In this document: positions 5,157 through 32,535 of the stretch, piece after piece
Layout: the number at the start of each line of letters is the position of its first letter
How positions within the stretch are numbered: position 1 is the stretch's first letter
Assembly: GCA_039091535.1 (NCBI GenBank)
Contig: JAWCLW010000001.1
Span: 145,073-209,072 of the forward strand
Length of the DNA stretch: 64,000 nucleotides
Direction of reading: 5' to 3'
Source of the DNA: Candidatus Aenigmatarchaeota archaeon
GTDB lineage: Archaea; Aenigmatarchaeota; Aenigmatarchaeia; GW2011-AR5
Program-made: the position numbers and the translations under genes
The notes under the pieces: model-generated
Databases searched by the model: none
Seen by the model: only the letters and a program-made list of their open reading frames with translations
Told to the model about the DNA's origin: nothing

Positions 5157-5164
5157 ATTAAAAC

Positions 5165-13825: not shown

Positions 13826-13884
13826 TTTTGTTAATAAAAGGGTCATGCGATACATATTTAAACATTACTATTTAGTAATAATTT

Positions 13885-15720: not shown

Positions 15721-17976
15721 ATGGTCTGTGATTATGAATACAATGAAGAGACACAAAAGATACGTGTTGATTGTATAGGATGCATCTATGGTTCTAGCAT
15801 AGAAGATTTTGGAACATGCATGGCAAAAACAATAGACAAACTTATGGAACTAAGAAAGGTTGTTCGTATCGTTCTTGCTGGCACAAGAGAATATGAATAC
15901 GATTTTTCGGAATCAAGATTGCTCTTAGAAATTGCAATTGCAATCGACAAAATAATTAAGGAAAAAATAATTTCATTAAAAAATGTTGTTATCAAGGGCT
16001 GCGAAGAGGATGCGCCAAGCAGGTATGCATTTTTGCAAAATTTGTTAAATGGAATGAGATACGACCCAATAGATGCTTATAAAAAGCTTATACGAGAGAT
16101 AAGACACACAAAAATAAAAGCAGAGCGTGAAAAAGATATTGTAAGAGAGTGTTATGAACATTATCTTGTGAATGCATTACTACCTATACAAAGAATTTTA
16201 GAAAATTGTAAATTAATTCAGATAGCCAAACCAAACCTAGAAGATCATAAAAACCGCTATTTATATAGGAAAATATTTCATCCAACTGTAAGACCTAACT
16301 TCATATATACAAGATATATATCGTTGCCACCACCAAACGCAGAATTACTTGACAGATACAAAATAGGTGACACAGACGTAGAGATTTACAATATTCCTGG
16401 AAAAGTGAGAAAATTATATCATATAATTCCACCTGAATTCAAATTGAACGAAGAAGAATATACATTGCTCGATACGGCAAGGCGATATCTTGGCAGACAT
16501 GAACCATTGGAGACTGAACTAGCTGAGCCAGAAAGGATAAGAGAGAATCTATTTAGAATAGGTTTGGATATGCTTCGTGAACTTGCAACAAATAGCAACA
16601 TACAATTATCAGAAGATAAGTTAAATAAATTAGCAGGTATACTTACAAGATACACAGCAGGCCTAGGTATTTTAGATTTGATTTTACAAGATGAAAATAT
16701 ACAAGATGTTGCGGTAAATTCTCCTCTTGGTCGAGCACCAATCTATATTTTTCATGGTATCTTTCAAGAGTGTGAAACAAACATAGTTCCAAGTAAAGAG
16801 GATGGAGAATCTTGGGCAACAAGATTTAGATTGCAGAGTGGTCGTCCATTGGACGAAGCAAACCCTGTATTGGATACAGAATTATCAGTACCTGGGGGAC
16901 GCGCACGTGTTGCAGCGATAACAAGAACCTTATCACCTGATGGACTTGGTTTTGCATTTCGACGTCATAGAGATAAACCATGGACATTCCCCTTGTTCAT
17001 AAATAATAAGATGATAGATTCGTTTTCTGCTGGTTTGGTCTGGTTTCTTATAGATGGATCAAGAACATTATTGATAGCAGGGACAAGGTCATCAGGAAAG
17101 TCGTCTTTCCTTGGAGCATGTATGGTTCAGATAATGCCAAAATTGAGAATAATAACAACAGAGGATACTCTTGAACTCCCGGTAGAACAATTAAGAGAAT
17201 TAGGCTATAATATTGAAAGATTAAAATCACGAAGTGTTATAACACATATAGAAACAGAACTACCAGCAGAAGAGGCACTAAGAACAGCATTACGTCTTGG
17301 CGATTCATGTCTTATTGTAGGTGAGGTAAGATCAAAAGAAGCTTTGGCACTATATGAGGCAATGAGAATTGGAGCGCTTGCAAATGTTGTTGCAGGTACA
17401 ATTCACGGAGACTCTGCATATGGTGTTTTTGATAGAGTTGTTAATGATTTAGGAGTTCCTCTAACAAGCTTTAAAGCAACAGATATTATTTTAATATGCA
17501 ATATGTTAAAATCGCCTGATGGTCTTCGTTCTTTTCGTCGTGTTGTTGAACTTACAGAAGTTAGAAAGCATTGGAAAAATGATCCACTAGATGAAGGTGG
17601 CTTTGTTAATTTATTAGAGTATTCTGCAAAGGACGATATATTAAAACCAACAAAAACATTGCTTACTGGTGAATCTATAATATTAAATGATATTGCTTCT
17701 CGTGTTCGTGAATGGAAGGGGAATTGGGATGCTGTTTGGGGTAATATAAAGCTTCGTGAAAAAATATTGCAAACTCTTGTTGACTACGCAAATGCAACAA
17801 AGAATTTTGATATAATAGAAGCACATAATGTTGTAGAATCAAATTCACAATTTCATATTATAAGCAATGAAGTAAAAGAAGAATATGGTGAATTAGATAA
17901 TAGATTAATCTATGAAAGATGGCAAGAATGGTTAAAGAAAAAAATAAAAAATACTATTACTATGAAAAATTCTTAA
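15721..17976 (+). CDS. type II/IV secretion-family ATPase (FlaI/PilB/VirB11-like) of an archaeal type IV filament system
   Basis: 751 aa. Walker A is GTRSSGKS (17080..17103). It also has the Asp-box-like RIITTEDTLEL, the Walker B-like GDSCLIVGEVRSKEA and the His-box-like GTIHGDSA. The N-terminal domain is long and family-variable. Confidence 0.85.
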   Translation: MVCDYEYNEETQKIRVDCIGCIYGSSIEDFGTCMAKTIDKLMELRKVVRIVLAGTREYEYDFSESRLLLEIAIAIDKIIKEKIISLKNVVIKGCEEDAPSRYAFLQNLLNGMRYDPIDAYKKLIREIRHTKIKAEREKDIVRECYEHYLVNALLPIQRILENCKLIQIAKPNLEDHKNRYLYRKIFHPTVRPNFIYTRYISLPPPNAELLDRYKIGDTDVEIYNIPGKVRKLYHIIPPEFKLNEEEYTLLDTARRYLGRHEPLETELAEPERIRENLFRIGLDMLRELATNSNIQLSEDKLNKLAGILTRYTAGLGILDLILQDENIQDVAVNSPLGRAPIYIFHGIFQECETNIVPSKEDGESWATRFRLQSGRPLDEANPVLDTELSVPGGRARVAAITRTLSPDGLGFAFRRHRDKPWTFPLFINNKMIDSFSAGLVWFLIDGSRTLLIAGTRSSGKSSFLGACMVQIMPKLRIITTEDTLELPVEQLRELGYNIERLKSRSVITHIETELPAEEALRTALRLGDSCLIVGEVRSKEALALYEAMRIGALANVVAGTIHGDSAYGVFDRVVNDLGVPLTSFKATDIILICNMLKSPDGLRSFRRVVELTEVRKHWKNDPLDEGGFVNLLEYSAKDDILKPTKTLLTGESIILNDIASRVREWKGNWDAVWGNIKLREKILQTLVDYANATKNFDIIEAHNVVESNSQFHIISNEVKEEYGELDNRLIYERWQEWLKKKIKNTITMKNS

Positions 17977-18011: not shown

Positions 18012-18461
18012 TTAGCTGCTACATGTTGGTGTTGTTGTGTGTATTGCTGATATACCAGGGCAGTATGTCAAAATAGTTGTCTTTGAATAATCAGAACATC
18101 CAGGTCCAACCTGTACACCTGTGACCTGAATTGTTCCTATTGCACCTCTATTCAGTGTGAATGTTGTTGTATTTTGGAAATTGCCACCTGTCTTATTTGT
18201 TAACATAGCACTTGATATTGTAATCTCTCTGACCCCAGTATTTTTAACAATAACATTAGCTATGCCAGTATTATTGTTTATGTATACAGAATCTATTTCT
18301 ATCGCAGCTCCTGAACATTCCACAATCTCAGTTGATTTATTTCCTACACCACTTGTTGTTGATGTTGTAAAACTTGTTCCCCATGTTATTATAAGTACCG
18401 CAGCTGTTACAGTAAATGCTATAAGCAATACTGCTGCTATTAGAGGCGATATTCCTTTCAT
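18012..18461 (-). CDS. archaeal type IV pilin (class III signal peptide, Pilin_N/DUF361-like)
   Basis: MKG-ISPLIAAVLLIAFTVTAAVLIITWG.. is the canonical archaeal pilin/flagellin N-terminus. The body is Thr/Asn-rich with sequons, and GC is locally higher. The gene is divergent from the platform gene. Confidence 0.85.
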   Translation of the reverse strand: MKGISPLIAAVLLIAFTVTAAVLIITWGTSFTTSTTSGVGNKSTEIVECSGAAIEIDSVYINNNTGIANVIVKNTGVREITISSAMLTNKTGGNFQNTTTFTLNRGAIGTIQVTGVQVGPGCSDYSKTTILTYCPGISAIHTTTPTCSS

Positions 18462-18639: not shown

Positions 18640-20643
18640 ATGGGATTTATAAGGAAAAGACCAGAAAAGAGTAAAGAAAAAGAAAAGTTGATTAAAGCAA
18701 GAGAAGCAAAAATAAAAGAAATAATTTCACGTGAATACAAATTGTATAAAGAAGAGGAAAGATTAGCTTCTTTACCAAGAACATTCTATGAAAAAGCCTG
18801 CAAATTTAGTGAAAAATCTATAAAAATAAAACCAGATGAAAAGACAGGGAAAAAAATAGAAGAGGCTATAAAATTTTCTCATTTGAATATTACACCAGAA
18901 GGTGTTGCATCACTTACTATATTGTTTGCATTGGTGACAAGCGTACCTACACTCATTCTTATAATACTAAATATATTTGGTCTGCCTGGAATATCTGTTG
19001 GCTATGGTATGATCATTATGTTACTTTCTATGTTTTTTACATACTATCTTTATACATATCCTTTTCATTTAAAGAAGAGATACGAAATAGATGTAGGGTC
19101 AGAAATTGTGACAATGATATTGTATATGGCAATGTACATGAGAAATGTGCCAAATCTTGAGGGTGCACTACGTTTTGCATCAGAAAATTTGACTGGACCA
19201 TTAGGATACGAGCTGAAAAAGCTTATGTGGGATGTTGAAGTTGGAAATTATGTTAATGTTCAAGATGCATTAATGGATTATACAAGAAAATGGTCTCAAA
19301 ACAAAGAACTTATTGAATCAATAGAATTATTGATAACATCTTTGAAACAAGTTGGCGAAAGAAGATTATCATTGCTAGATGAAGCAGTTAACATAATACT
19401 TGAAGGCAACAGAGAACAAGCAAAACACTTTAACCAAAAATTAAAGATGCCCGTTATGGTTGTGCATGCGCTTGGTATAATATTACCAGTTATGGGTCTT
19501 GTTTTATTTCCAGTTGTTGCTATCTTTCTGCGAGTTGAGGCAACAATTTTATTTGTTGGTTATGATATTCTTCTTCCATTTATACTTTATTTTGTGATAA
19601 CAAACATACTTGAGATAAGACCATCAACATTCAGTAAAATAGATATAACAGAGAATCCGGATGTTCCACCATCAGGAAAATTCAAATTTGGAAAAACCTT
19701 TGTAAGAGCTTGGCCATTTGGACTTATTGCTGGGACAATTGTTTTATCACTTGGAATTATTGTATCTTTTAATGATGAGGAGGGCATAATATCCGCAATA
19801 CTGATTTTATTTGGCATAGCATTTGGATTTGCTTTATATTATATCTTACTTTCTAATCAGAGACTAAAAGTGAGAGAAAAGACAAGAAAGATTGAAGGGG
19901 AATTTGCAGAGGCCTTATTCCAATTGGGAAATCAAATAGGTGGTGGGACACCGATAGAATTATCTATTGAACACTCAATGGAAAGGATAAAAAATCTAGA
20001 AATAAGAAATCTATTCTCGCGTGCATTAAATAATATGAAATCTCTTGGATTTACATTTTCGCAAGCATTCTTTGATAAAGAATATGGAGCAATAAGATAT
20101 TATCCATCAAAAATGATAAAATCTATAATGCATACAGTTGTTGAATCTACAAAAAAAGGTGTAAGCACCGCTGCTGTTGCTATGCTATCTGTTTCGCGTT
20201 ATTTGAAAGGTCTTCATCAAACACAAGAGGATATAAAAGAACAATTAAATGACACTCTAAACTCCTTAAAATTTCAACTGTTATTTTTGTCTCCATTGAT
20301 ATCAGGTGTTATTGTAACACTTGCAATAATAATAATGCGTATCCTAAAACAATTATCGGAACAATCAACTGCGCTATCAACAGGTTCATTACCATTTATA
20401 TCACAGTTTGGCGAAGCTAATATAACACCTTTTCAATTTTTGTTTGTTGTGGGAATTTATCTTATAGAAACATGTTTCATTTTATCAATGTTTATAAATA
20501 CAATAGAGAATGGTGAAGATCCTATAGGTTGGTATAACCTTACAGGATATTCATTGATTATTGGGTTCGTTGTTTTTTCAATATGTTTATTTGCTACACT
20601 TACTGTGTTTGGCCCATTGATAAGTTCAACACTGACTAGTTGA
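18640..20643 (+). CDS. FlaJ/TadC/PilC-like polytopic platform protein
   Basis: 667 aa with a charged cytoplasmic N-terminus and two blocks of TM helices. These are separated by soluble segments resembling T2SSF domains (..LEGALRFASENLTGPLGYELKKLMWDVEVGNYVNVQDALMDY..). It sits next to the ATPase and pilin. Confidence 0.65.
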   Translation: MGFIRKRPEKSKEKEKLIKAREAKIKEIISREYKLYKEEERLASLPRTFYEKACKFSEKSIKIKPDEKTGKKIEEAIKFSHLNITPEGVASLTILFALVTSVPTLILIILNIFGLPGISVGYGMIIMLLSMFFTYYLYTYPFHLKKRYEIDVGSEIVTMILYMAMYMRNVPNLEGALRFASENLTGPLGYELKKLMWDVEVGNYVNVQDALMDYTRKWSQNKELIESIELLITSLKQVGERRLSLLDEAVNIILEGNREQAKHFNQKLKMPVMVVHALGIILPVMGLVLFPVVAIFLRVEATILFVGYDILLPFILYFVITNILEIRPSTFSKIDITENPDVPPSGKFKFGKTFVRAWPFGLIAGTIVLSLGIIVSFNDEEGIISAILILFGIAFGFALYYILLSNQRLKVREKTRKIEGEFAEALFQLGNQIGGGTPIELSIEHSMERIKNLEIRNLFSRALNNMKSLGFTFSQAFFDKEYGAIRYYPSKMIKSIMHTVVESTKKGVSTAAVAMLSVSRYLKGLHQTQEDIKEQLNDTLNSLKFQLLFLSPLISGVIVTLAIIIMRILKQLSEQSTALSTGSLPFISQFGEANITPFQFLFVVGIYLIETCFILSMFINTIENGEDPIGWYNLTGYSLIIGFVVFSICLFATLTVFGPLISSTLTS

Positions 20644-20710: not shown

Positions 20711-20974
20711 ATGAATTTACCTTGGTTTGTAGTTTGTGTTCTTATAACACTTCTCATACTAGGTTTATTGTGGGCCATAACAAATGGATTAATAAATATA
20801 ACAAGACCAGAAGCAGTATTATCAATATTTCTTTATAGAAAAAAAGGTATGGAAGCGGATTTGGTGAGAGTTATTTTATACATATTGATTGTTGTTGCAT
20901 TATCTATGGCATTGTTTTATGCACTTGACCAAAAAGGATTTACAGAACTTTTTGCAAACATGCCAATCAAATAG
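20711..20974 (+). CDS. small membrane protein (2 TM); second half resembles a pilin-like leader
   Basis: 87 aa. The internal ..RKKG-MEADLVRVILYILIVVALSMALFYAL looks like K-G plus a hydrophobic helix. Confidence 0.5.
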   Translation: MNLPWFVVCVLITLLILGLLWAITNGLINITRPEAVLSIFLYRKKGMEADLVRVILYILIVVALSMALFYALDQKGFTELFANMPIK

Positions 20975-20982
20975 GTGAAAAA

Positions 20983-21138
20983 ATGGAATTAACTGCAAAA
21001 ACATTGACAATAATAATATTTGTAATTATGGTAGCATTTGTTTTATTCTTATTTTTTGGAAGTTTTGCATCAGAAGCAGGTGCACCAGCAAGCAATATAT
21101 TCTATAAGTTATTTGATTGGATAAGCGGATTTATATAA
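20983..21138 (+). CDS. small N-terminally anchored protein
   Basis: Hand-translated 51-aa ORF absent from the track: MELTAKTLTIIIFVIMVAFVLFLFFGSFASEAGAPASNIFYKLFDWISGFI. It starts 8 nt after the previous stop. Confidence 0.5.
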   Translation: MELTAKTLTIIIFVIMVAFVLFLFFGSFASEAGAPASNIFYKLFDWISGFI

Positions 21139-21178
21139 AAATTATAATTAGAAAAACTAAATAGTTGACAGTGATTAT

Positions 21179-22051
21179 ATGGAGCTTGGAGCCATCGTTA
21201 CTGGATTAATAGCATTGGTTGTGCTTGGTTTGATGTTAATGCTACCAAAAGGTATAACAACAATTGTTCAAGAAAATATAACAAAATTGACGCCAGACTA
21301 CATAAAACTTGAAAATTATGATATAAGATTAAATTATCAACCATTATCTGATAATAAATTTTTATATTCAATATTTTTATCTCCAATAATCTCTTATTCG
21401 GGTAAGATTGAACATGATACATCCATTATTTCTTTTATTGAATTCAAGAGTAAAAGTCAAAAGATGATTGTAGTGGAAGGACTTAAATCAGATGATAACC
21501 CTGTAATTCCAAAAGCTACAAAAAAATTTGATGGCACATTAAAAGCAGAAATACAAAGTGAGATCCCACCTATATTTGATTGGGTGTATCAGAAAAACCT
21601 CAACAAACCACTTATTGAAGGTCAATCTATTATAATAGATAAAAAATTTATTGTGACCTTGTTTGATCTGGATGAAACCCTTTTTGATAAATTAAATCCA
21701 TTAAGAAGTAGATGTGCAGTAAAATTTCTAATTGAATGTAAAAATGAAGTAAAAACATTGAGTTTAAGGGATGATGACAATGAACAAGAAAAAGATGTAG
21801 AACTATGTGGTGCAAACATAAAAATAAATTTAAAAGAAACAAATGACTGCAAATCTGCAGATGTAGATATTATTTATACAAAGCTTGGTGAAATACCTGA
21901 TTTTGATATAAAAGAAAAATTATGGTTGAGTTTATGGAGAAATACAGATTGTGTCAGATTATGGCATACATATGAAGATTTATTTGAACATTGTTTTGGA
22001 GATCTTCTAGGAAGATATAAATTATATCATAATTTGTTAATTCCAAAATAG
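21179..22051 (+). CDS. N-terminal-helix (pilin-like?) secreted protein
   Basis: 290 aa starting MELGAIVTGLIALVVLGLMLML, followed by a soluble domain with a few Cys. Confidence 0.6.
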   Translation: MELGAIVTGLIALVVLGLMLMLPKGITTIVQENITKLTPDYIKLENYDIRLNYQPLSDNKFLYSIFLSPIISYSGKIEHDTSIISFIEFKSKSQKMIVVEGLKSDDNPVIPKATKKFDGTLKAEIQSEIPPIFDWVYQKNLNKPLIEGQSIIIDKKFIVTLFDLDETLFDKLNPLRSRCAVKFLIECKNEVKTLSLRDDDNEQEKDVELCGANIKINLKETNDCKSADVDIIYTKLGEIPDFDIKEKLWLSLWRNTDCVRLWHTYEDLFEHCFGDLLGRYKLYHNLLIPK

Positions 22052-22299
22052 TAGATCTGTATATGTTTTATATATAACCAAAAAGGACAAATAGTATCAT
22101 CTTCAGACTCGCAACCAATTCATGTATTATTTTATCTAATTAATTCCCCGTAAATCATCGTATTTTATTTCTAGTAATTCGACCCAAACTTCAAAATTTG
22201 TTAAATTTTTCTATCTTCTTTCTATTTATAATTTTATTGCTCTTACTATTTCTTACAGCACTAAAAATATTTAATTAAGCCTCATCAATAATAGTAAAT

Positions 22300-23361
22300 A
22301 TGCCTGTACATTTATCACAGTCTGCTGTCATATATTTAATTCTTATGTTAGTTGTTATTTTTATAGGTCTTATGATAGTCACGAAAGGAAAGATATTGCT
22401 TACTGGTGAAGGTGCAAAATTATCAAAGATGTTTGAGTATGGTGACATAAAACTTATAGGTGATGCAGAAATCCCAGAAGAAAAAATAAAGATAGAATGT
22501 ATAGAGGATGAAAATGGATATAAAATAAAAAATATTGTATTGAATTCTGCATCATTTGAATATTATGGAAAAGAAGATAAAATAGAATTTATGATAGTTT
22601 TAGATCTGGGGAATGCTTTACGTGTTGGATATGACGAAAACGAAGAGTATAAAATAATATGTGAATTAAAAGATAAAAAAATGCAATGTGATCCACCAAA
22701 AAACATTTGGTTTTATGTGAATGATTATGACCAAAACAAAATAAAATCACGTGAATATTTTCACTTCACGATTTGGAGAGCAAAATTAATGATACTAGAG
22801 CATGGAGGTCATAATCTTAATGGAAAAAAACTTAAGGAATTGATAGATAAGTATTCTCCATATTATCTTGGTTCATTTGGACTTGGTGGGTTTACAATTG
22901 ATCAGAAATGCAGAGGATGGTCTTGTGACAAATTAAAAGAGAATGAATGCAAGACAAATTCAAATTGCTATTGGTCTGTATCTGTAAATATTTGGTTTGG
23001 GCGTATAATGAGTAAATGTAATGCATGTCCTACAGAAGAAAATTGTAAAAAATATAATACAGAATCTATGTGTACGCAATGTTCATATCCAAAAAACAAT
23101 TGTAAATGGTATGAAAATTATTGCAGAACAAAAGATTATGCTGAACTAGATGAAAAATGTAAAAAATGTAGTGGAAAAACAAAATGTGATGAAAATACAT
23201 GCATAAACACAGATCCAAAGTGTTGGTTCAAATTTGATAATACGTGTCGTGCATGTTATGAAGATGCGAAGTGTGAGATGTTTGCAGCAGAGGATTGTGC
23301 AGATGCTAGTAGATGTGGTTTAAATTGCAAAGTAGAAAATAAAATTTGTGTAAGTGAGTAA
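22300..23361 (+). CDS. N-terminally anchored protein with PSI-like Cys-rich C-terminal modules
   Basis: 353 aa with N-terminal helix AVIYLILMLVVIFIGLMIV. Residues 204-350 hold 23 Cys in C..C....C......C.W patterns (ECKTNSNCYW, KNNCKWYENYC, DPKCWFKFDNTCRAC). Confidence 0.7.
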   Translation: MPVHLSQSAVIYLILMLVVIFIGLMIVTKGKILLTGEGAKLSKMFEYGDIKLIGDAEIPEEKIKIECIEDENGYKIKNIVLNSASFEYYGKEDKIEFMIVLDLGNALRVGYDENEEYKIICELKDKKMQCDPPKNIWFYVNDYDQNKIKSREYFHFTIWRAKLMILEHGGHNLNGKKLKELIDKYSPYYLGSFGLGGFTIDQKCRGWSCDKLKENECKTNSNCYWSVSVNIWFGRIMSKCNACPTEENCKKYNTESMCTQCSYPKNNCKWYENYCRTKDYAELDEKCKKCSGKTKCDENTCINTDPKCWFKFDNTCRACYEDAKCEMFAAEDCADASRCGLNCKVENKICVSE

Positions 23362-23362
23362 A

Positions 23363-23494
23363 ATGATATTTGATATACCTGTTAAATATATTTTGTTGAT
23401 TTTAATTTTATTACTTATTGTTATTCTCCTTGGACTTTGGCGTAGTAGTGCATTTCAATCATTAGATTTAATAAAAAGTATATTAGGAGTGTGA
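23363..23494 (+). CDS. small single-TM protein
   Basis: Hand-translated 43-aa ORF: MIFDIPVKYILLILILLLIVILLGLWRSSAFQSLDLIKSILGV. It starts 1 nt after the previous stop. Confidence 0.45.
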   Translation: MIFDIPVKYILLILILLLIVILLGLWRSSAFQSLDLIKSILGV

Positions 23495-23498
23495 TAAA

Positions 23499-23621
23499 AT
23501 GAGAATAGAATATGTGGTTGTTGGATTTGTGCTTGCTGCAATAATTTTATTTGTTGCAATAAGTATGCTCAAGAATGTAATCCCTGGAGTTGAATCTATA
23601 TTCAATCTCTTTGGTGGTTAG
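23499..23621 (+). CDS. small single-TM protein
   Basis: Hand-translated 40-aa ORF: MRIEYVVVGFVLAAIILFVAISMLKNVIPGVESIFNLFGG. Confidence 0.45.
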   Translation: MRIEYVVVGFVLAAIILFVAISMLKNVIPGVESIFNLFGG

Positions 23622-25278
23622 ATTGGAAGCAATAGAAGAATTGATATTCATTGCAATAAGTTTAATGTTTCTACTTATGGGAATTGTACTTATAGGTAGC
23701 ATTATAATGAGTGTATATAATCCATACGAGCAAATGACATTCGCAAATGTTGAAAAATTAAAAAGTGCAATAGAAGAGGCATGTCTTGATGAAAATAATG
23801 AAATAACAATATTGTTTAGTATGCCACAGAATACACCAGCATTCTCGTTACTCTTTTCTGTTCTTCCAGCATGGATAATAAAATCAAGTGGAGACCCTAA
23901 TTATGTTTTGTATTATGAGTCATTCCCACCAGGTGAAGCAATTGGATGGGAGGCTTATCATAATTTTAATAATAGATTAATTTCTCCATTGCCAGATGGT
24001 TATGAAGGAAAGATAGTAGAGGATGTTAAAAATTATGCGAGAGATGTTTATATTGAATTTAAAAATAGAAATCCAAACTCAGTAGTTGATGCAGTTTTGA
24101 TCAATAACATAATCCTTAATGATAAATATCGTTCTGATTTTATTGTTAATAAAAATGGTGATTTAACAAACGAGATATTTGAAACAAGTAGCGAGACAAA
24201 AAATGAACCATCAAAAGGATTTTTTGGATATGGGAAATGGGAAGGGAATTTTTATAAATTCCAAAATTATGTTGGCCTTTCAACTATAGAAAAAACATTA
24301 ATAAAATATCAGCCATGTGGTGAAAATTCTTTATGCCTAAAAACAAGAAATGGTATTTATAGATTCCCGCTAGAGATGTGCAAAGGAAAAATAAAAAATA
24401 TACAGCTAATTTACGATAGTAGAAATAGAGGAAAGATTTATGTAATAACAACTGTTGGAGTAGTTGTTGTCGTTGGTGCTTCAATAGTTAGTGTTTATGT
24501 AGGTTCTATAGCTGCTGTTATCACTAAAGCCCTCTCAGTTTTTGGTAGTGTATTAAAGTTTGTTTGGAAGTTCCCACTAATTGGAAAACTTATTACTATT
24601 GGAGGAACAGCTCTTGGAGTTGAAGAAGGTTTGAGTTTTATTTCATCACAATTTATTTCGTTTAAAACTTCAGACTTCTATTTAGCAAGTCCATGCGATA
24701 TTAAAACCAAGAACACAGATATAAAATTATATAATAGTGAAACAGAAGAAACTACCACTATAGAAGAGGAAAGAAATATGAGAATAAGGTTTAGTAATTG
24801 TAAAGAAGGTGAGATAACTGGTGATAATCCAATAGTTTGTCAAAATGTAATGAAATATCCATTATATAGATATAATGAAGATGGAAAACTTGAATATGTG
24901 AGAGACAAAAATAAAAATATAATTTATCATTATACATGTGTTGAAAAGATTGGAGATAAAGACGACAAAGAGATTAAAGGTAATGATCCACCAAAAGGTG
25001 ATATTATAGATTATTATAATGGATATTGTATACAGATTTATGTGGATACAAGACCTAAAGATTTTTGCTGGACGGATGACCCATGGAAAAGAGAAGGTAA
25101 ATTTGACTTTGATACAAAGATATTAGCAAAAATACTTGGTTTAGATACAATAAAAGATTCTACAGCATATATAGATAGAGAGGACCAAAATGATATAATT
25201 GTATTAAAACGTGGTGATATTGATAATGTTTTGAAAAGAACACTTGAAGGAAAGATAACGTGGATCTGGCCAAAGTAA
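23614..25278 (+). CDS. membrane protein with N-terminal helix and internal hydrophobic cluster
   Basis: ~554 aa. The start is uncertain: GTG at 23614 overlaps the upstream stop, and the track uses TTG at 23590. N-terminal helix is LIFIAISLMFLLMGIVLIGSIIM. The internal hydrophobic segment is IYVITTVGVVVVVGASIVSVYVGSIAAVITKALSVFG. Confidence 0.65.
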   Translation: MVRLEAIEELIFIAISLMFLLMGIVLIGSIIMSVYNPYEQMTFANVEKLKSAIEEACLDENNEITILFSMPQNTPAFSLLFSVLPAWIIKSSGDPNYVLYYESFPPGEAIGWEAYHNFNNRLISPLPDGYEGKIVEDVKNYARDVYIEFKNRNPNSVVDAVLINNIILNDKYRSDFIVNKNGDLTNEIFETSSETKNEPSKGFFGYGKWEGNFYKFQNYVGLSTIEKTLIKYQPCGENSLCLKTRNGIYRFPLEMCKGKIKNIQLIYDSRNRGKIYVITTVGVVVVVGASIVSVYVGSIAAVITKALSVFGSVLKFVWKFPLIGKLITIGGTALGVEEGLSFISSQFISFKTSDFYLASPCDIKTKNTDIKLYNSETEETTTIEEERNMRIRFSNCKEGEITGDNPIVCQNVMKYPLYRYNEDGKLEYVRDKNKNIIYHYTCVEKIGDKDDKEIKGNDPPKGDIIDYYNGYCIQIYVDTRPKDFCWTDDPWKREGKFDFDTKILAKILGLDTIKDSTAYIDREDQNDIIVLKRGDIDNVLKRTLEGKITWIWPK

Positions 25279-25347: not shown

Positions 25348-25761
25348 ATGAAAGGTGTAGAACCATTACAATGGGCATTTATAGTGCTAGTACTTTTATT
25401 AGTTTTCATTTTGTTTGCAATAAATCCATTACAGCAGGCGATAGATGCAGCGATAGCAAATAATGCAATGATAAATGCAAATTTTTTAGCTTCTATCATA
25501 AATCTTATGCAAGCATCAGCAAGTAATATGGAATATATGTTGGATTTGCCAAAAACAGATTGTATAATAAAAATAAATGAAAAAGGGGTAACATATCATT
25601 CAACAAAAAGGGATATAATTTATACAATGGATTTGATACAAAATTATAAATTAAGCGATTTTAGCAAAAAAATATTGATACCTATTACAGAAATAAATTG
25701 CAAAGATAAAATTGCTATAATAAGAAAAATTGGGAATGCAATCATGGTAGTTGGTGGATAA
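25348..25761 (+). CDS. class III signal peptide (pilin-like) protein
   Basis: MKG-VEPLQWAFIVLVLLLVFILFAINPL.., 137 aa. Confidence 0.7.
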   Translation: MKGVEPLQWAFIVLVLLLVFILFAINPLQQAIDAAIANNAMINANFLASIINLMQASASNMEYMLDLPKTDCIIKINEKGVTYHSTKRDIIYTMDLIQNYKLSDFSKKILIPITEINCKDKIAIIRKIGNAIMVVGG

Positions 25762-26924
25762 TGAAACTAGACCCAATGCAAATTTTCTTTTTCATAATAA
25801 GGATGGGGCCTGCAATAATATTAATAGCACTTATCGCATATGCATTTTTCTCATTTAAGACAGAGGTAAAATCAGATGAAATGGAGAGATTGAACATAGA
25901 ACTTGCTGAAAATATAATGACATCTGATTTAGTTTATGATAAAAGTATATTTGATCCCAAAAAATTACACGATCTTGAAAATAAGATAAACAATATAGAT
26001 AACAAATATCATAATATTGAGATGCCTTTTAGGTCTTGTAAATATGGCTATTATCTTAAAATAGAAAGTGAAGAATTAGCATGCATTGAAAATGAAAATT
26101 GTGAAAATTTCTGTAGAGATGTATGTGGATTGAATGAAATAAAATATGATGAAAATTGCAAATGTAGCAAAGGTATTTTTGGTTGGAAAAAATTTTTTGG
26201 TGACAATGATTGCCAATGCAAAAAAAATGATAAATGGATTGAAAATTACGAATTTGAATTTGGTTACGTCCCTGATAAAGATATTAAAAAAAATTCAAGA
26301 AAATATCCTGTTGCAATAGCAAATATTAATAATGAAAGACCAGAAAATTATTATGAAAGTGTTTATCCGGCTAAGATGCACTTAACGATTTATGACTCCT
26401 GGCTATCTAGAATTTCTTGTGCTATAGAAAGGGCTTATGCGCTAAATGAAGTACAGGAAGTTAATATTCTTGGTATTGGTACAAATTGTTTACCAAAATA
26501 TTATTCTAATTATTATTCTAATTTTAAGTGCATTTCAATAAAAAAATCGGATAGATTTGATAACAGTAACCATATATGTACATATATGTTAAAATATATT
26601 GGTGGTAATGTTAATGAATACGAAATTATCGAATGTAGATATTCTGAAATACCCGTATTTCTTTTCTTTGATGCATATGACAAAAATTCTAAATATGCAA
26701 AAATTATAATATATCCTATAAAAAAATCTGTCATTGACTCACAAATTCTTTATGATACACCAGAACATCCCATCACTTATGTTTCTCTTCAAGATATGAG
26801 TGTCACAAATTGTGGAAAAATAAGAGACCATCCAGAATATATTTCTAAAAATAACGATGAGATCGGTGCAATCGTTTTATGTCTAAAGTCTGAAAAAAAA
26901 TGGAGAGAAGATATGCAATGGTAA
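25761..26924 (+). CDS. N-terminally anchored Cys-containing protein
   Basis: 387 aa. Its start overlaps the previous stop (TAATG). N-terminal helix is GPAIILIALIAYAFFSF, and a Cys cluster reads ..ACIENENCENFCRDVCGLNEIKYDENCKCSKG..DCQCKK. Confidence 0.7.
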   Translation: MKLDPMQIFFFIIRMGPAIILIALIAYAFFSFKTEVKSDEMERLNIELAENIMTSDLVYDKSIFDPKKLHDLENKINNIDNKYHNIEMPFRSCKYGYYLKIESEELACIENENCENFCRDVCGLNEIKYDENCKCSKGIFGWKKFFGDNDCQCKKNDKWIENYEFEFGYVPDKDIKKNSRKYPVAIANINNERPENYYESVYPAKMHLTIYDSWLSRISCAIERAYALNEVQEVNILGIGTNCLPKYYSNYYSNFKCISIKKSDRFDNSNHICTYMLKYIGGNVNEYEIIECRYSEIPVFLFFDAYDKNSKYAKIIIYPIKKSVIDSQILYDTPEHPITYVSLQDMSVTNCGKIRDHPEYISKNNDEIGAIVLCLKSEKKWREDMQW

Positions 26925-27859
26925 AAAAAGGTGTTCCAAAAATGAAAGGTCAACTTCCTGAAGAAATGGGCTGGACATTGATATTTCTTTTAGTCTTTGT
27001 TTTTTTAATAGTGACATTTATAATCTTCGGATTGATTGTAAGGGCTCCGTTTACAGGTATGCAACCACTAAGTTATTCAATAGAATTTGTGAATATGGCA
27101 AATAGACCATATATTCTTGCAGAAATATTATCACATTATATGTTCGATGACAGACAATTCCTTGAGCATGCATTAGAATCTATAATTGTTAACTCGAAAG
27201 AAAAAGCAAATTCTTTAGGAATAGAAAATGGGTTAAAACAATTTCTAAAGTCATATGAGCTAAAATTTTATTCTATATCAGTAAAAAATAAGGATGAAAA
27301 TGAATTGATTTCTGCTAGTAATAAACTCAAAAGATGTGGTGAGAATGGTGTAGGTGTTTGTACAGAGAGATATATATCAGTGTGTAAAATTAAATTTATT
27401 ACATTACCACCACCATTTGGTACTATAATTCGTTCAACTTGTGAGGTTCAGGCTAAAGGTTGCGGAAATGGTAGAATAAAAATTGATGATCCAAATAAAG
27501 ATTGTGCTCTTGCTGAAATATGTTGTATGGAACATAAGGATAATGAAGGACATTATTTAGATGAAAATAATAATATATTACCAAATTGTGGTCCACCAGG
27601 CCAAAAAATTGGAGTTTGTGATGATACGAAACTTCGTAAAGAAATATCTATAAATATAGTATCAAAAAAATATGCCCTTGATGATTGCAGAGATGGTAGA
27701 AAACGCATAGAAGAAGAGGATGATGAATGTAAAGATCCATTAATATGTTGTACACCTTTGAGTGATGTATCTGAAGTAAATCTTATGACAGAGGCGAACA
27801 TACCATTACTATACAAAGATCAGATCTTTGGATACATAGAGGTGGTTATTGGTGACTAA
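26918..27859 (+). CDS. class III signal peptide (pilin-like) protein with duplicated Cys module
   Basis: The ATG at 26918 overlaps the upstream stop (ATGGTAA). The leader is MVKKGVPKMKG-QLPEEMGWTLIFLLVFVFLIVTFIIFGLIV. Two copies of C-x2-GR-x2-I-x6-C-x4-ICC are present. Confidence 0.7.
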   Translation: MVKKGVPKMKGQLPEEMGWTLIFLLVFVFLIVTFIIFGLIVRAPFTGMQPLSYSIEFVNMANRPYILAEILSHYMFDDRQFLEHALESIIVNSKEKANSLGIENGLKQFLKSYELKFYSISVKNKDENELISASNKLKRCGENGVGVCTERYISVCKIKFITLPPPFGTIIRSTCEVQAKGCGNGRIKIDDPNKDCALAEICCMEHKDNEGHYLDENNNILPNCGPPGQKIGVCDDTKLRKEISINIVSKKYALDDCRDGRKRIEEEDDECKDPLICCTPLSDVSEVNLMTEANIPLLYKDQIFGYIEVVIGD

Positions 27860-29696
27860 GGGTGTTGGAACAACTGTTGGTACAATACTTTTAATTGTTG
27901 TGTTATTGTTTTTCCTTATTATTTATGTAAATATGGTTTCTGAGAATACGAAAAATAAAATAAAACTTAATCTTTTATCAGCTGAATTATTAAAAATTGA
28001 AAACACATTCTACATTCTTAATCGCTCATTGGGCATGACATGGTATCTCTCAACAATACAGACAATATTTAATGCAGGCGATAATGGTGTTGGTTGTGGC
28101 AATGATGACGATGAAAATAAATATAGTACAATGTATGGTTATGATATAAGTAATTTGAAAGAAGGTTATTGGTATCAGGGTAATAATGAAAAGCAAAAAA
28201 CGCCACAAAATGGTGATCTATACTGCGAGTCTGTAATACCAACTGGAAAAAAATATAATAAATTAGAATGTAACCCAAAGGTATGCATGCCAAATGCTCT
28301 GTATCTAAAAGAATATCTAATTGAAAAAATGAAAGAGTATCATACAATAAAAACAAATTTTGAAATAAATAATATCGATGTTACCATAGCAGATAATGAT
28401 AAAAATAAAATATCTACTTATTTCTCTGTTGAAGATGATAAAATAAAATCTTATACAACACAAAAATTAAAATTAGAAAATGTTCATACAAAAATAGAAA
28501 CAGATACAAAAAATGAAATAACAATATATACAGAGTTTAACAAAATGATAACTGCTGGTAATTTTATAGTTGCCTATTTATTTGTTTTTTCAAATAATTT
28601 TTTAAACGAGTTTGGATATAAACCAAACACAGAAAATAAGGATACTTATTTGAATTATATAATGAATCATCTTTCTGATAAAATAAAAACATTGCCAGAC
28701 GAGTATAAGATTTTTGGCTTATCAAAAATAAAACCAAAAATATACATAGATTACAAAGATTTTAGAATAAGAGCTCCAACAATTGATGAAAAACAAAATG
28801 GGTTTCAGCCAGGTACAGAACTAATTCTACATTATGATGCAGACATAAAAATTATTGAAGGTGGTGAAGAGCTACCAGAATCAATAACACCTATTTTTGA
28901 TTGGCCGACTAAAAGTAGAAAAATTGTAAGTTGTTATGGTCCAAGAACACATCCAATTTTTGGTGATTCAAGATTCCATAAAGGAATAGATATAGCTCCT
29001 GATACTCAAGGTGATAATGAATATGTAATGGCTATTGAGGATGGTGAGGTTGTGAAAGTTGAAAAGGATTGTGATGATAACAAAAAATGTGGTGGTGGTT
29101 ATGGAAATTATATTCTATTAAAACATGAAAATGGTCTTTATTCATTTTATGCGCATCTTAAAAAGGGTGATGTGTATGCTGAAAAAGGTGACAAAAAAAA
29201 TAAAGGTGATATTATAGCTCGAATGGGAACTAGTGGTGTATCTACTGGTGTTCATCTTCATTTTGAAATAAGATCAGATGAAAAAAAACAAGATAATCCA
29301 TGTAAATATATAGATTGTACACAATCTACAATAAATAAATGTACCATATTTTCTGGTCTAAATTATGGATATTTTTATCATGATGAAGATGAAAATATAT
29401 TTGAAAGAAGACCATTTTCTCTTGTTTTTGGTGTAGAAGATTATTTACCAGTATTGAATTGCAGATTTGATGATGCAATATATAAATTTTATACATGGTA
29501 TAAAACAAATGATATGGTTTGTTGCTATGAAAAATTATGGACATGTAATCTTGATATAGAAAATCTTCCACAAGAAAGAAAAATACCTATTGGCTCTGGA
29601 CCAGATGAATGTAATACAATATTGAGGAATGTAAATCTGAAGATTATTTGTAATTCGAATGGAAGTTTTGAAGTTAGTGTCTTTTCAATAGAATAA
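27849..29696 (+). CDS. pilin-like N-terminus fused to M23 (LytM/lysostaphin-type) metallopeptidase domain
   Basis: The start is TTG/GTG and overlaps the upstream stop. The leader is (M)VTKG-VGTTVGTILLIVVLLFFLIIYV. The M23 core lies at ~28896..29290: FHKGIDIA (HxxxD), YGNYILLKHENGLYSFYAHL, GTSGVSTGVHLHFEIR (HxH). The C-terminal tail is Cys-containing. Confidence 0.85.
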   Translation: MVTKGVGTTVGTILLIVVLLFFLIIYVNMVSENTKNKIKLNLLSAELLKIENTFYILNRSLGMTWYLSTIQTIFNAGDNGVGCGNDDDENKYSTMYGYDISNLKEGYWYQGNNEKQKTPQNGDLYCESVIPTGKKYNKLECNPKVCMPNALYLKEYLIEKMKEYHTIKTNFEINNIDVTIADNDKNKISTYFSVEDDKIKSYTTQKLKLENVHTKIETDTKNEITIYTEFNKMITAGNFIVAYLFVFSNNFLNEFGYKPNTENKDTYLNYIMNHLSDKIKTLPDEYKIFGLSKIKPKIYIDYKDFRIRAPTIDEKQNGFQPGTELILHYDADIKIIEGGEELPESITPIFDWPTKSRKIVSCYGPRTHPIFGDSRFHKGIDIAPDTQGDNEYVMAIEDGEVVKVEKDCDDNKKCGGGYGNYILLKHENGLYSFYAHLKKGDVYAEKGDKKNKGDIIARMGTSGVSTGVHLHFEIRSDEKKQDNPCKYIDCTQSTINKCTIFSGLNYGYFYHDEDENIFERRPFSLVFGVEDYLPVLNCRFDDAIYKFYTWYKTNDMVCCYEKLWTCNLDIENLPQERKIPIGSGPDECNTILRNVNLKIICNSNGSFEVSVFSIE

Positions 29697-30224: not shown

Positions 30225-30554
30225 ATGAAAGGTATATCACTCGCAATAGAGACTATTATATTCATAATACTTGGCGTTACTGTACTCACTGTATTACTTT
30301 TCTTCTTTACTTCATTAGGTGGACCAACACAAAATGAAGTAGAAAATCAATTCGAAAGAAATCAATTTTGTGGACGATATGCAAACTATGATCCTAAATG
30401 TGAAAATGTTGATAAAATAATTGATGCAAAACAGAAAGAAGAAATATTAAAAGGAATTGGTGAGGCTTGCAAAGCATTAAAAGTAGAGGGATGCACATCT
30501 ATTCCTCCATCTATTGAATGTATAAAAAATTGTTGCATACATTGCCCAAAATAA
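30225..30554 (+). CDS. class III signal peptide (pilin-like) protein, Cys-rich
   Basis: MKG-ISLAIETIIFIILGVTVLTVLLFFF.., 109 aa, with 8 Cys in the C-terminal half (..IECIKNCCIHCPK). Confidence 0.75.
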   Translation: MKGISLAIETIIFIILGVTVLTVLLFFFTSLGGPTQNEVENQFERNQFCGRYANYDPKCENVDKIIDAKQKEEILKGIGEACKALKVEGCTSIPPSIECIKNCCIHCPK

Positions 30555-30634: not shown

Positions 30635-30931
30635 ATGTCAGAAAAAACAGAAAAAGAAAAATCAAGCGACAATATTGTCTTCATCGGCAAAAAACCATCT
30701 ATGAGCTATGTCCTTGCTGTTGTAACCCAATTTGGTGAGGGTCAACAAGAAATTAGTTTAAAGGCACGTGGTAGGTCAATAAGCAAGGCGGTTGATGTCG
30801 CTGAAATTGTTAGAAACAGATTTATACAAGATGTAAAGGTAAAGGATATAAAAATAGGAACAGAGGAAATCGAAGCAGAAAACAAAGAAAAAATCAATGT
30901 TTCAACAATAGAGATAATTTTAAAGAAATAA
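30635..30931 (+). CDS. albA: DNA/RNA-binding protein Alba
   Basis: ..[56 protein letters not shown] is close to the Alba/Sso10b consensus. GGAGGTG lies upstream. Confidence 0.9.
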
Positions 30932-31209
30932 AAACAATTGAAAACCACTTAAACATTTTGTATAAATAATTTTTGTATTTTTTTCTATTTATCATATATA
31001 ATTTTGTTAAACTAATTATATGCAATGATTTTTTTGAGTTTTTTATAGTTTCAAGTCATCAACTAGTAGTTGGTTCTTTTGTATTTCATTTAATTGATTT
31101 TTTACTTTAATCCAATTGTCTAAGATAAATGTTTTTTTGTCGATTACTGAGCAAAAGAAAAACTATTTATATGTCTATTGACATAGTTAATTTAATAAAC
31201 AAAGGGGGT

Positions 31210-31521
31210 ATGAAAATGAAAGGATTGGAATTACCAATAAGTATGATTGTTGTTATTGCAGTAGCTGTTTTGGTTCTTGTTGTGATTGCAGTATTTTTTA
31301 CAGGTCAAACTGCCCTTCAAACAGAAACAATAAAAGTGCAAAACGCGTTGTCTACAGGTTGCCAAAAATTAAGGACTTTATATAACTGCGTGGGCGATTT
31401 AGATTTTACTGTTGGATATATAGAACCTGGCAGAACAGAAGAGGCAACTTTTAAGAGGATTTGTGAATTAAATAAATATTCGGTTGTTGAATGCAAAAAA
31501 TATTGTGGTTGTCCTGCTTAA
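31210..31521 (+). CDS. class III signal peptide (pilin-like) protein, Cys-containing
   Basis: AAAGGGGGT precedes the ATG at 31210. The product starts MKMKG-LELPISMIVVIAVAVLVLVVIAVFF.. and has 6 Cys in its C-terminal half. Confidence 0.7.
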   Translation: MKMKGLELPISMIVVIAVAVLVLVVIAVFFTGQTALQTETIKVQNALSTGCQKLRTLYNCVGDLDFTVGYIEPGRTEEATFKRICELNKYSVVECKKYCGCPA

Positions 31522-32535
31522 TTATTTTTTTATCCACCTACTGAGAGAGCTTTGGTCTTCTCGTTCTTCTATTTTTTTTAATGCATTTTCTATTCTTTCT
31601 TCTGAGAAATCAAATTCATCACATAATATTTTTTTGATTTTTTCAGTATCTGGTTGACCAAATTTTATTTCATAGTGGTTTGTTGGCGGCTTTTTGAAAA
31701 ATTCAAATATCTCTTCTGGCGATGCTTCAAATCCCCATGCAAGACCCTCAAAAACCCTATGGAGTGTCTTTTTTTCTCTTACAAGCTCTAATGCTTTTTT
31801 GGGACCATAACCAGGTATGCCTCCTGGATTGTAATCTGTGCCAATAAGTATTCCAAGAATTATTAATTGTTCATGATTAATTCCTAGATTTTCAAGTATA
31901 TCCTCTAATATTATCAATTCTGGGTTTATTGTTATATATGTATCTTTTCTCTTTTTTTTACCAGTAATAGAAAGATTTCTTATTAATTTTGGTGCACCAA
32001 AAAGCAATGAATCATAATCTTGTGTAGCAACAGCATATGCGTCCCCATTTTTACACATAAATGCACATAATGCTTCACCTTCACTTGATGCTTGTAAATA
32101 AGGTACACCCATTGCATCCAAGAGCCTTTTACTTTGCTCTATAATATCATTCGTTATTGTCGCAGAGCGCTGAGCATACTTTTTGGCTGTCTCAAAATCT
32201 TCACGCTCAAGTGCCTCCTTCCACTCACGTAAGGCTTCTGCACGTACGTCGCGTCTTTGTTCTGTTGTTTCTCTTTTGAATTCAGGTGGTTTACCATCAA
32301 AAACATAAATAGGTCTTATGTTTGCTTCCATTAACTTTAATGTTCTATAAAATATACCAGAGAGATGAGATGTAATCCTACCCTTAAAATCCTTTAATGG
32401 CTCACCATCCGGCTGTCTTATGATTGTAAGAAATTGATATATCCAATTAAACGCATCTATTGCTATTCTTTTGTCAAATAGATCATTCAAGGTTATCTCT
32501 TTTCCCTTAACAATATTTGTGAATTGAACACCCAT
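31522..32535 (-). CDS. fen: flap endonuclease 1
   Basis: MGVQFTNIV..IAIDAFNWIYQFL..ITSHLSGIFYRT..IRPIYVFDGKPPEFK.., 337 aa. This is the classic FEN-1 N/I domain layout. Confidence 0.9.
   Translation of the reverse strand: MGVQFTNIVKGKEITLNDLFDKRIAIDAFNWIYQFLTIIRQPDGEPLKDFKGRITSHLSGIFYRTLKLMEANIRPIYVFDGKPPEFKRETTEQRRDVRAEALREWKEALEREDFETAKKYAQRSATITNDIIEQSKRLLDAMGVPYLQASSEGEALCAFMCKNGDAYAVATQDYDSLLFGAPKLIRNLSITGKKKRKDTYITINPELIILEDILENLGINHEQLIILGILIGTDYNPGGIPGYGPKKALELVREKKTLHRVFEGLAWGFEASPEEIFEFFKKPPTNHYEIKFGQPDTEKIKKILCDEFDFSEERIENALKKIEEREDQSSLSRWIKK

Follow-up and report, generated by a model that had tools for sequence, protein, structure and literature searches.

A conserved type IV filament operon of Aenigmarchaeota ends in a pilin-like scaffold protein with exchangeable murein hydrolase modules

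In a 64-kb stretch of DNA from a Candidatus Aenigmatarchaeota archaeon (64,000 nucleotides of contig JAWCLW010000001.1, called the window here, to which all coordinates refer unless another assembly is named), the open reading frame (ORF) 27849..29696 encodes a protein in which an intact M23 peptidase domain lies within a scaffold with a pilin-like N-terminus. The gene of this protein (the M23 protein) is archaeal; it comes last in a conserved type IV filament operon and is translationally coupled to the gene before it. Related proteins combine this scaffold with different murein hydrolases, singly or several at once, and it may therefore represent a polymorphic, contact-delivered, wall-breaching effector. 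Taken as a whole, we consider it rather probable that the pilin-like carrier displays its murein hydrolase on or beside the type IV filament in order to breach bacterial walls. The M23 protein consists of the following parts (aa, amino acids; strand in brackets):

27849..29696 (+): ORF of the M23 protein, 615 aa counted from TTG
27849..27863 (+): putative class III leader M-V-T-K-G; translation probably begins at GTG 27852
27864..28868 (+): scaffold N-domain, aa 6 to ~340, with hydrophobic aa 6-28, a long helix and then an alpha/beta domain
28896..29300 (+): M23 metalloendopeptidase module, aa 350-484, with H377, D381, H436, H469 and H471 as Zn/catalytic residues
29301..29696 (+): scaffold C-domain, Cys-rich, aa 485-615 plus stop codon; conserved, no Pfam family

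The M23 catalytic domain is intact

An earlier note, made from the sequence alone, had claimed a complete M23 core, and a profile search bore this out. Pfam family PF01551 (Peptidase_M23) matched aa 375-482 with 82.5 bits (E=2.6e-23; cut-off 28.7 bits) and was the sole Pfam family found in the protein. NCBIfam gave 15 M23-type matches. The quoted motifs are present, FHKGIDIA with H377 and D381, YAHL with H436, and GVHLHFEIR with H469 and H471, and the codons of these five residues lie at 28977, 28989, 29154, 29253 and 29259, respectively. A sequence search of the PDB matched 32 M23 chains, among them Gp16, a chain of 915 aa, and also the pre-ejectosome internal protein of cyanophage A4, and the zinc-binding and catalytic motifs aligned with those of the solved M23 proteins.

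All five residues were invariant in an alignment of 15 homologues. Among 47 distinct M23 modules of the family described below, D381 was kept in all 47 and the four histidines in 40-44. Since all five catalytic residues are kept, we rejected a degenerate LytM domain of the EnvC/NlpD type without catalytic function. The AlphaFold2 model of the full protein had a mean predicted local distance difference test (pLDDT) value of 84 and a predicted TM-score of 0.76, with pLDDT values of about 72-96 in the M23 domain. In Foldseek searches this domain gave E-values down to 1e-9 and target-normalised TM-scores of 0.76-0.81 to 2b13, 4qpb, 6smk and 4bh5, its neighbours being the catalytic domains of LytM, lysostaphin and EnpA (TM ~0.8). 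The superposition of the predicted structure on these enzymes agrees with the assignment made in the earlier note.

Searching genome contigs with a profile of the family alignment returned 600+ bacterial matches, which covered only aa ~350-490 with the generic M23 motif and so gave no taxonomy for the family at full length. The closest relatives of the M23 module outside the family were bacterial, mostly from Bacillota, with at most 46% identity over about 126 aa; further close matches were metagenomic proteins with partner domains of the phage-lysin type. This comparison suggests that the module was acquired from bacteria or their phages.

Gene start and scaffold domains

The start of the M23 gene had been claimed to be coupled to the upstream stop codon. 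A Shine-Dalgarno sequence GAGGTG is located at 27839-27844, 7 nucleotides 5' of GTG 27852, within the DNA directly 5' of the gene start (..aGAGGTGgttatTGGTGactaa..), and the stop codon of the upstream gene (27857-27859) is overlapped by the start of the M23 gene, in line with this claim. The identical copy at NCBI has 614 aa, consistent with a start at GTG 27852. An alternative public gene call (Logan) yields a protein of 587 aa that starts from an internal ATG, corresponding to M29 (27933), so that the signal and the anchor are cut off. The segment before M29, comprising KG-VGTT and the hydrophobic residues, is conserved at the protein level in 13 of 15 close full-length homologues and is therefore translated. 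The JGI calls for P0004 and P0005 likewise begin inside the hydrophobic stretch. With gene-call starts misplaced in this way, automated signal-peptide screens would miss these proteins.

The M23 protein has the N-terminus M(V)TKG/VGTTVGTILLIVVLLFFLIIYV (beginning MVTKG/VGTTVG..; here and below the slash stands after the boundary Gly). KG is followed by a 23-residue hydrophobic stretch, which is long enough to span the membrane. The AlphaFold2 model contained an N-terminal helix of 72 residues, from aa 7 to aa 78, followed by an alpha/beta domain; modelled alone, the N-domain had a pLDDT of 74 and a helix at aa 7-81. At the other end of the protein, the Cys-containing tail noticed before turned out to hold nine Cys within aa 485-601 that were invariant in the 15-member alignment.

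The gene closes a conserved type IV filament operon

The M23 gene is accompanied by the following genes for filament machinery and pilin-like proteins:

15721..17976 (+): type IV filament assembly ATPase, 751 aa; Pfam T2SSE, 6.2e-14
18012..18461 (-): canonical archaeal type IV pilin, 149 aa, MKG/ISPLIAAVLLIAF; TIGR02537, 1.2e-07, above cut-off
18640..20643 (+): platform membrane protein, 667 aa; Pfam T2SSF, 5.4e-06, 26.8 bits (cut-off 25.2)
20711..25278 (+): four genes for proteins of 87, 290, 353 and 562 aa; no Pfam match, N-terminal hydrophobic helix in each
25348..25761 (+): pilin-like protein, 137 aa, MKG/VEPLQWAFIVLVLLLV; [KR]G plus hydrophobic motif
25761..26924 (+): 387-aa protein with N-terminal hydrophobic helix; no Pfam match, gene overlaps both neighbours
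26900..27859 (+): pilin-like Cys-rich protein, 319 aa, ..KMKG/QLPEEMGWTLIFLLVF; stop overlaps the M23 gene start
30225..30554 (+): small pilin-like protein, 109 aa, MKG/ISLAIETIIFIIL; TIGR02537 unmatched
31204..31521 (+): second small pilin-like protein, MKMKG/LELPISMIVVIAVAV; start taken inside ORF 31129..31521

After the platform gene, eight genes of the + strand are tightly packed. An N-terminal hydrophobic helix is found in the product of each, the first seven are without Pfam match, and the last four (for the 137-, 387-, 319- and 615-aa proteins) overlap one another. In NCBIfam the ATPase scored 1.4e-38 with a FlaI-like and 3.3e-30 with a TadA-like model, both under the equivalog cut-offs. 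The 149-aa pilin gave 2.9e-08 with TIGR02537 when its N-terminal residues were searched.

In the window as in other assemblies the order is platform, about eight unknown genes, effector (the homologue in the place of the M23 protein), small pilin-like gene, Alba, small pilin-like gene and FEN1. This order is shared by eight independent assemblies (L081, L082, L083, L084, L086, L087, L088 and L089), and the syntenic loci include homologues just 33-35% identical to the M23 protein of the window. The arrangement of ATPase, pilin and platform was found also in L082, where the platform homologue has 668 aa and an equal operon position, and in L086, where ATPase and platform head the run and the effector has 1181 aa. 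Counterparts of the four genes for 87-, 290-, 353- and 562-aa proteins, similar in size and order, are present in L081, L082, L084, L086 and L089; the L082 counterpart of the 562-aa protein begins KKG/ALDDVVLMLVSLILLV.

The pilin-like starts are conserved as well. The 137-aa protein starts with MKG/VEPLQW.. in the window and with MARVRKKG/SILWSF.. in L082, its motif being conserved in L081 and L082 with differing leader lengths. The 319-aa protein starts with ..KMKG/QLPEEMGW.. in the window and with MNRKG/QFPEEIGW.. or MKKIKYKKKG/AILPF.. in relatives, and the overlap of its gene with the effector gene recurs in L082, L083, L084 and L088. The 109-aa protein (MKG/ISLAIE..) stands directly downstream of the effector in the six loci in which the downstream N-termini were read (including the window, L081, L082, L083 and L084); in L086 and L089, too, the gene after the effector is of this size. 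The second small pilin-like gene, for which the motif start within the 130-aa protein of ORF 31129..31521 is MKMKG/LELPIS.., is kept after the Alba gene in L081, L082, L083 and L084.

Two further observations concern the borders of the locus. LAGLIDADG homing-endonuclease genes lie in or next to it in L082 (13327..14187) and L089 (3855..4352). Just upstream of the filament ATPase, at 12905..14799 (+), two adjacent genes encode proteins of 306 and 304 aa with N-terminal hydrophobic/RR signal-like segments; the 306-aa protein is without Pfam match, and the 304-aa protein has a twin-arginine-like start (MNKLTRREFIK) and matches NAGPA phosphodiester glycosidase (2.9e-17).

A class III-like N-terminus and the signal anchor alternative

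By class III signal we mean a leader at the extreme N-terminus, short and as a rule basic, that ends in [KR]-[GA] and precedes about 20 hydrophobic residues; the N-terminus of the M23 protein is of this kind. In its family, 93 of 117 members showed [KR]G with 12 or more hydrophobic residues behind it (KG in 91, RG in 2), for example in MRRRKG/VGSVIS.. and ..RHSKG/AGTTVG... The leader ranges from 3 to 44 aa (mode 3, 'MKG') and the boundary motif is unchanged. Judged from sequence, such a leader of free length with a fixed Lys-Gly boundary is a hallmark of class III (prepilin-type) signals. Among 136 stop-to-stop ORFs of the window, only 8 carry [KR]G and a hydrophobic stretch at the N-terminus, 7 of them within the locus at 18-31.5 kb, and the KG-type motif is common to the M23 protein and at least five other proteins of the locus. 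We rejected a cleavable Sec signal peptide, as the 23-residue stretch exceeds the length of a Sec h-region and is not followed by a small-x-small site.

Several results weigh against the proposed display of the enzyme on a filament for breaching bacteria. The archaeal pilin model TIGR02537 (arch_flag_Nterm) matched neither the M23 protein nor two homologues at E-values up to 10. When the N-terminal 54-60 residues of the KG-type proteins were searched against NCBIfam at E up to 10, no pilin model was found for any of them except the 149-aa pilin. In most cases Gly stands at position +2 of the mature protein predicted from this motif, a departure from the FlaFind consensus. A fold search with the N-domain (Foldseek against PDB and BFVD, E<=1e-3) returned neither pilins nor anything else, the matches being at chance level only, and a sequence-profile search of the PDB found no relative of this domain. 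Prepilin peptidases of the Peptidase_A24 family (PibD/FlaK/EppA) were absent from the 49 window ORFs scanned with Pfam. Moreover, a long hydrophobic N-terminus after Lys is also how a plain type II signal anchor looks. Finally, no recognised murein-binding domain was detected in the M23 protein by Pfam, and no bacterial partner of Aenigmarchaeota is known or reported in the literature searched.

The M23 protein could instead be a membrane-anchored ectoenzyme. With an uncleaved type II signal anchor it would still cut foreign murein without ever becoming part of a filament, and the filament machinery would merely bring about contact with the bacterium or be co-expressed. This is the main rival reading, but we regard it as unlikely. 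The 23-residue stretch could indeed span the membrane, and such an anchor would fit the unmatched TIGR02537, the undetected pilin fold and the lack of an A24 peptidase among the 49 ORFs of the window. However, a plain anchor needs no invariant boundary Gly, whereas KG or RG is kept across most of the family behind leaders of very different length. The motif also marks the other KG-type proteins of the locus, and translation of the gene is coupled to that of a KG-type neighbour, in an operon slot that is kept in all eight assemblies. Of the pilin-like N-terminus proposed in the earlier note, the class III-like leader has thus held, with a [KR]G motif kept family-wide, but the pilin itself is seen neither by TIGR02537 nor by fold searches. 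The term 'pilin-like' is justified by motif and context; 'pilin' is not proven, because curated pilin models and fold searches fail to recognise the N-domain.

The scaffold carries exchangeable murein hydrolase cassettes

The family was delimited by an exhaustive search of 1.84 billion representative proteins (clusters at 50% identity) with a profile of aa 1-345. The N-domain profile matched 113 clusters at E<=1e-3, 69 of them at E<=1e-30, with lengths of 63-1340 aa. A second, word-indexed search with the N-domain returned 9 proteins and nothing beyond the exhaustive search. All members with a named source were from Aenigm(at)archaeota or an 'archaeon'. The earlier note had proposed to look for the same fusion in public archaeal genomes; the scaffold family found comprises 113 clusters, is syntenic in eight assemblies and is archaeal wherever the source is named. 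Pfam modules were counted in the 66 members with a length of 360 aa or more:

SLT: 35 of 66 members
Peptidase_M23: 26 of 66 members
Amidase_2: 5 of 66 members
Lysozyme_like: 3 of 66 members
SLT_2: 3 of 66 members
CHAP: 2 of 66 members
Amidase_3, VanY, Glucosaminidase, Peptidase_M15_4 and NlpC/P60: 1 of 66 members each

Aside from a few other weak matches, the predicted cassette modules are essentially known murein hydrolase classes. Several of them may be stacked on one protein, as in the L086 effector, which combines Glucosaminidase, SLT, M23 and CHAP.

The architecture was read with local hidden Markov models (HMMs) made from three parts of the window protein (N-, M23- and C-domain). It consists of the N-domain, one or more variable cassettes and the Cys-rich C-domain, and the C-domain is present in most members whatever the module. 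About ten members have no catalytic module, the N- and C-domains abutting directly; one of them, P0135, occupies the same operon slot. The proteins P0014 and P0127 have highly similar N-domains and C-domains of 81% identity, and their middles are divergent, M23 being present only in P0014. As the two differ in the middle and share N- and C-domains, they record a recent cassette exchange on a stable scaffold.

The close homologue P0006 (903 aa) has an insertion of ~300 aa in the N-domain (alignment columns ~120-400), right after a conserved GCG motif. If enzymatic, this insertion would be a second insertion site in the scaffold. A match to Glyco_hydro_cc in another member of the family hints at a further enzymatic module.

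Archaeal setting and other genes of the window

The M23 protein is identical to MEM7819404.1, annotated as 'peptidoglycan DD-metalloendopeptidase family protein' on a 234-kb contig of a Candidatus Aenigmatarchaeota metagenome-assembled genome (MAG). Its neighbours include a gene for the CCA-adding enzyme as well as the following genes:

30635..30931: Alba
31522..32535 (-): FEN1
40483..41019: CDP-archaeol synthase (CarS)
47950..50556 (-): S-layer protein; S_layer_C, 1e-27

The guanine-cytosine (GC) content is ~29% throughout the region and uniform around the M23 gene. The archaeal origin of the gene follows from these archaeal neighbours, the matching GC content and the identical protein in the Aenigmatarchaeota MAG. 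Contamination or a chimeric contig was rejected on the grounds of the uniform GC content and the synteny with archaeal genes in eight independent assemblies. The region of the S-layer gene has a GC content of 0.384, clearly above the window average of ~0.29.

That the window encodes an S-layer protein and shows no murein synthesis genes had been stated before; the S-layer gene was recovered as listed, and no murein-synthesis (Mur-type) families were found among the 49 ORFs scanned, which represent 64 kb only. Genes for pseudomurein synthesis were not seen in these ORFs either, and genes for muropeptide uptake or catabolism were not seen in the locus. Scans of the whole 64 kb for tRNA genes and Rfam families gave nothing that reached the threshold.

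A second murein-type hydrolase is encoded at 61953..63776 (-), 224 bases from the window end. This Cys-rich protein of 607 aa has an SLT domain at aa 341-453 (PF01464, 2.5e-12) and no N-terminal hydrophobic segment in the listed ORF. It was rejected as a member of the scaffold family because the HMMs of the scaffold N- and C-domains did not match it, and the local HMMs found no second copy of the N-, M23- or C-domain in the window. At 4728..11427 (-), a pilin-like start MKG/ISLSLSMIVILIV occurs inside ORF 4728..5360, which adjoins genes for a 1296-aa protein with NEW3/Ig-like domains (5165..9055) and for a 792-aa Cys-rich protein without Pfam match (9049..11427). This region may be a second surface or filament-associated module.

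Putative target and mode of action

Pseudomurein lacks the N-acetylmuramic acid (MurNAc)- and D-Ala-specific features on which Amidase_2/3, SLT and VanY/M15 act. The modules of the family act on features lacking in pseudomurein and would therefore target bacterial murein and not the archaeal wall. Bacterial murein is also the probable target because an S-layer gene is present and no murein synthesis gene is in view. The earlier note had pointed to a bacterial wall on these latter grounds, and its view is strengthened by the SLT, MurNAc-L-Ala amidase, CHAP, NlpC/P60, glucosaminidase and D-Ala-D-Ala carboxypeptidase modules now found in the same slot.

It is highly improbable that the substrate is of another kind, namely the cell's own envelope, the pseudomurein or S-layer of an archaeal host, or filament proteins in need of processing. 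The cultivated DPANN hosts known so far are archaea, and some M23 enzymes also cleave Gly-rich proteins, e.g. LasA on elastin, both of which would suit such a substrate. However, the modules found in the same slot (MurNAc-L-Ala amidases, SLT, VanY/M15) target MurNAc and D-amino-acid features, and the window showed no gene for murein or pseudomurein synthesis.

The enzyme might also serve nutrition, degrading free murein debris of dead bacteria as a supply of amino sugars and amino acids and attacking no living cell. Murein of dead cells has been proposed as a nutrient in papers on DPANN archaea (PMC11537232), and the separate SLT protein and the NAGPA-type glycosidase of the window would fit this. 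Nevertheless, scavenging leaves unexplained why a hydrolase should be fused, in a conserved manner, to a scaffold of a filament operon, why cassettes are swapped between close relatives, and why up to four lytic modules are stacked on one tethered protein. Given also that no muropeptide uptake or catabolic genes were seen in the locus, we regard it as quite improbable.

In the filament-display reading, which we prefer, a class III (prepilin) signal peptidase would cleave behind G5 and so remove the short basic leader with its Lys-Gly end. The hydrophobic first part of the helix would hold the protein in the membrane and then allow its assembly with other KG-type proteins into a filament or at its tip, which would be built by the ATPase and platform encoded next door. 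A position at the filament tip is probable because of the bulk of the protein. The scaffold, with its N-domain and Cys-rich C-domain, would present the putatively Zn-dependent M23 endopeptidase outside the cell, where it would most likely cut the murein peptide cross-links of a bacterium touched by the filament, be it host, prey or competitor. The SLT, amidase or CHAP modules of the relatives would attack glycan and stem peptide. Whether the Aenigmarchaeota type IV filament with its exchangeable hydrolase cassettes is a polymorphic, contact-dependent weapon or feeding device that breaches living bacteria is a further step, which we propose tentatively and with some doubt.

Only a minority of DPANN archaea have known hosts, and a life on bacteria instead of other archaea is an open question for all of them. 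The locus offers a testable molecular handle on this question, being a lineage-wide operon with a carrier that is variable only in murein-specific enzymes. Should the carrier undergo processing and polymerisation in the manner of a pilin, the principle of the 'modular pilin' would extend to archaea and to lytic enzymes, and a new delivery route for wall-breaching effectors would be defined. If the filament is indeed a weapon or feeding device, these DPANN archaea would prey on or parasitise bacteria across the domain border, and no type IV filament armed with an enzyme would have been described in archaea before. In addition, the cassettes offer a readily available supply of varied murein hydrolases, and the locus could serve as a genomic marker of bacteria-associated DPANN lineages.

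Comparison with known systems

Murein hydrolases are found on several penetration devices, including the VirB1 SLT protein of type IV secretion systems, peptidoglycan (PG) hydrolase effectors of type VI secretion systems, and gp13 of phage phi29, which combines lysozyme and M23. As is proposed for the locus described here, lytic modules, often SLT and M23, are placed on a filament or needle that contacts the wall, and effector domains are polymorphic. The delivery machines are, however, unrelated, with no homology beyond the catalytic modules.

The scaffold family is similar in design to the bacterial modular type IV pilins, e.g. PilB of Streptococcus sanguinis, which consists of a pilin and a vWA module (Raynaud et al., 2021; PMC8179133). 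In both cases a class III signal and a long N-terminal helix, both predicted for the present proteins, serve as carrier onto which a functional module is grafted for display on a filament, the gene lies in a pilus operon, and many alternative modules occur across relatives. Unlike modular pilins, the present proteins are archaeal, and their carrier is a domain of ~340 aa of no recognised fold plus a Cys-rich C-domain, with the module between the two. Moreover, the modules are murein hydrolases and not adhesins, and processing and filament incorporation are putative here. M23 and archaea are not mentioned in the survey of modular pilins (PMC8179133).

In archaea, the bindosome (Bas) of Sulfolobus comprises sugar-binding proteins with class III signal peptides (PMC3047682). 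It is an archaeal precedent for class III signals on functional proteins other than pilins, and its deployment at the surface needs a dedicated type-IV-like ATPase and a membrane protein. The bindosome cargo, however, is solute-binding and not lytic, and lineage and operon content differ. The window ATPase scored 49.7 bits with the BasE model (cut-off 1000), and the FlaI-like and TadA-like models scored higher.

Large extracellular SLT (GH23) proteins have been reported from Woesearchaeota and Pacearchaeota (Castelle, 2021; PMC8204110; Vigneron, 2022; PMC9723730). They likewise represent bacterial-type murein-degrading enzymes of DPANN archaea and were read as means of attachment to or attack on bacteria, but they come from other phyla and reach up to 3,000 aa. 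In the passages of the two papers found under 'pili' and 'pilin', neither a pilin-like N-terminus nor a type IV filament operon is mentioned for them. In contrast to these SLT proteins, the N-domain profile is limited to the 113 clusters, of which the named ones are from Aenigmarchaeota or an 'archaeon'.

A further group comprises the archaeal weaponised peptidoglycan hydrolases, among which a bacterially acquired M23 enzyme was shown experimentally in haloarchaea to kill bacteria (Strock et al., 2025; PMC12352652). An archaeal M23 domain is common to that group and to the M23 protein, and domain shuffling is a hallmark of the group. Those proteins differ in being secreted, in having a catalytic and a PG-binding domain, and in occurring mainly in Halobacteriales. 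The definition used by Strock et al. (2025) combines a catalytic peptidoglycan hydrolase domain with LysM, PG_binding_1, SH3b etc., whereas PF01551 stands alone in the M23 protein; for lack of a recognised PG-binding domain, their screen would miss it. The terms 'pili', 'pilin' and 'class III' do not occur in that paper (PMC12352652).

A 2026 survey of archaeal type IV filaments (10.64898/2026.04.22.720090) does not contain the terms 'peptidoglycan', 'hydrolase', 'M23', 'murein' or 'Aenigm', and the literature searched on DPANN or Aenigmarchaeota in connection with pili, M23, murein or transglycosylase gave no description of this locus. An Aenigmarchaeota-wide filament operon ending in a class III-type scaffold with swappable murein hydrolase cassettes thus appears to be undescribed, and the combination found in this locus is assembled from known principles, namely those of the modular pilins and of the murein hydrolases of DPANN archaea.

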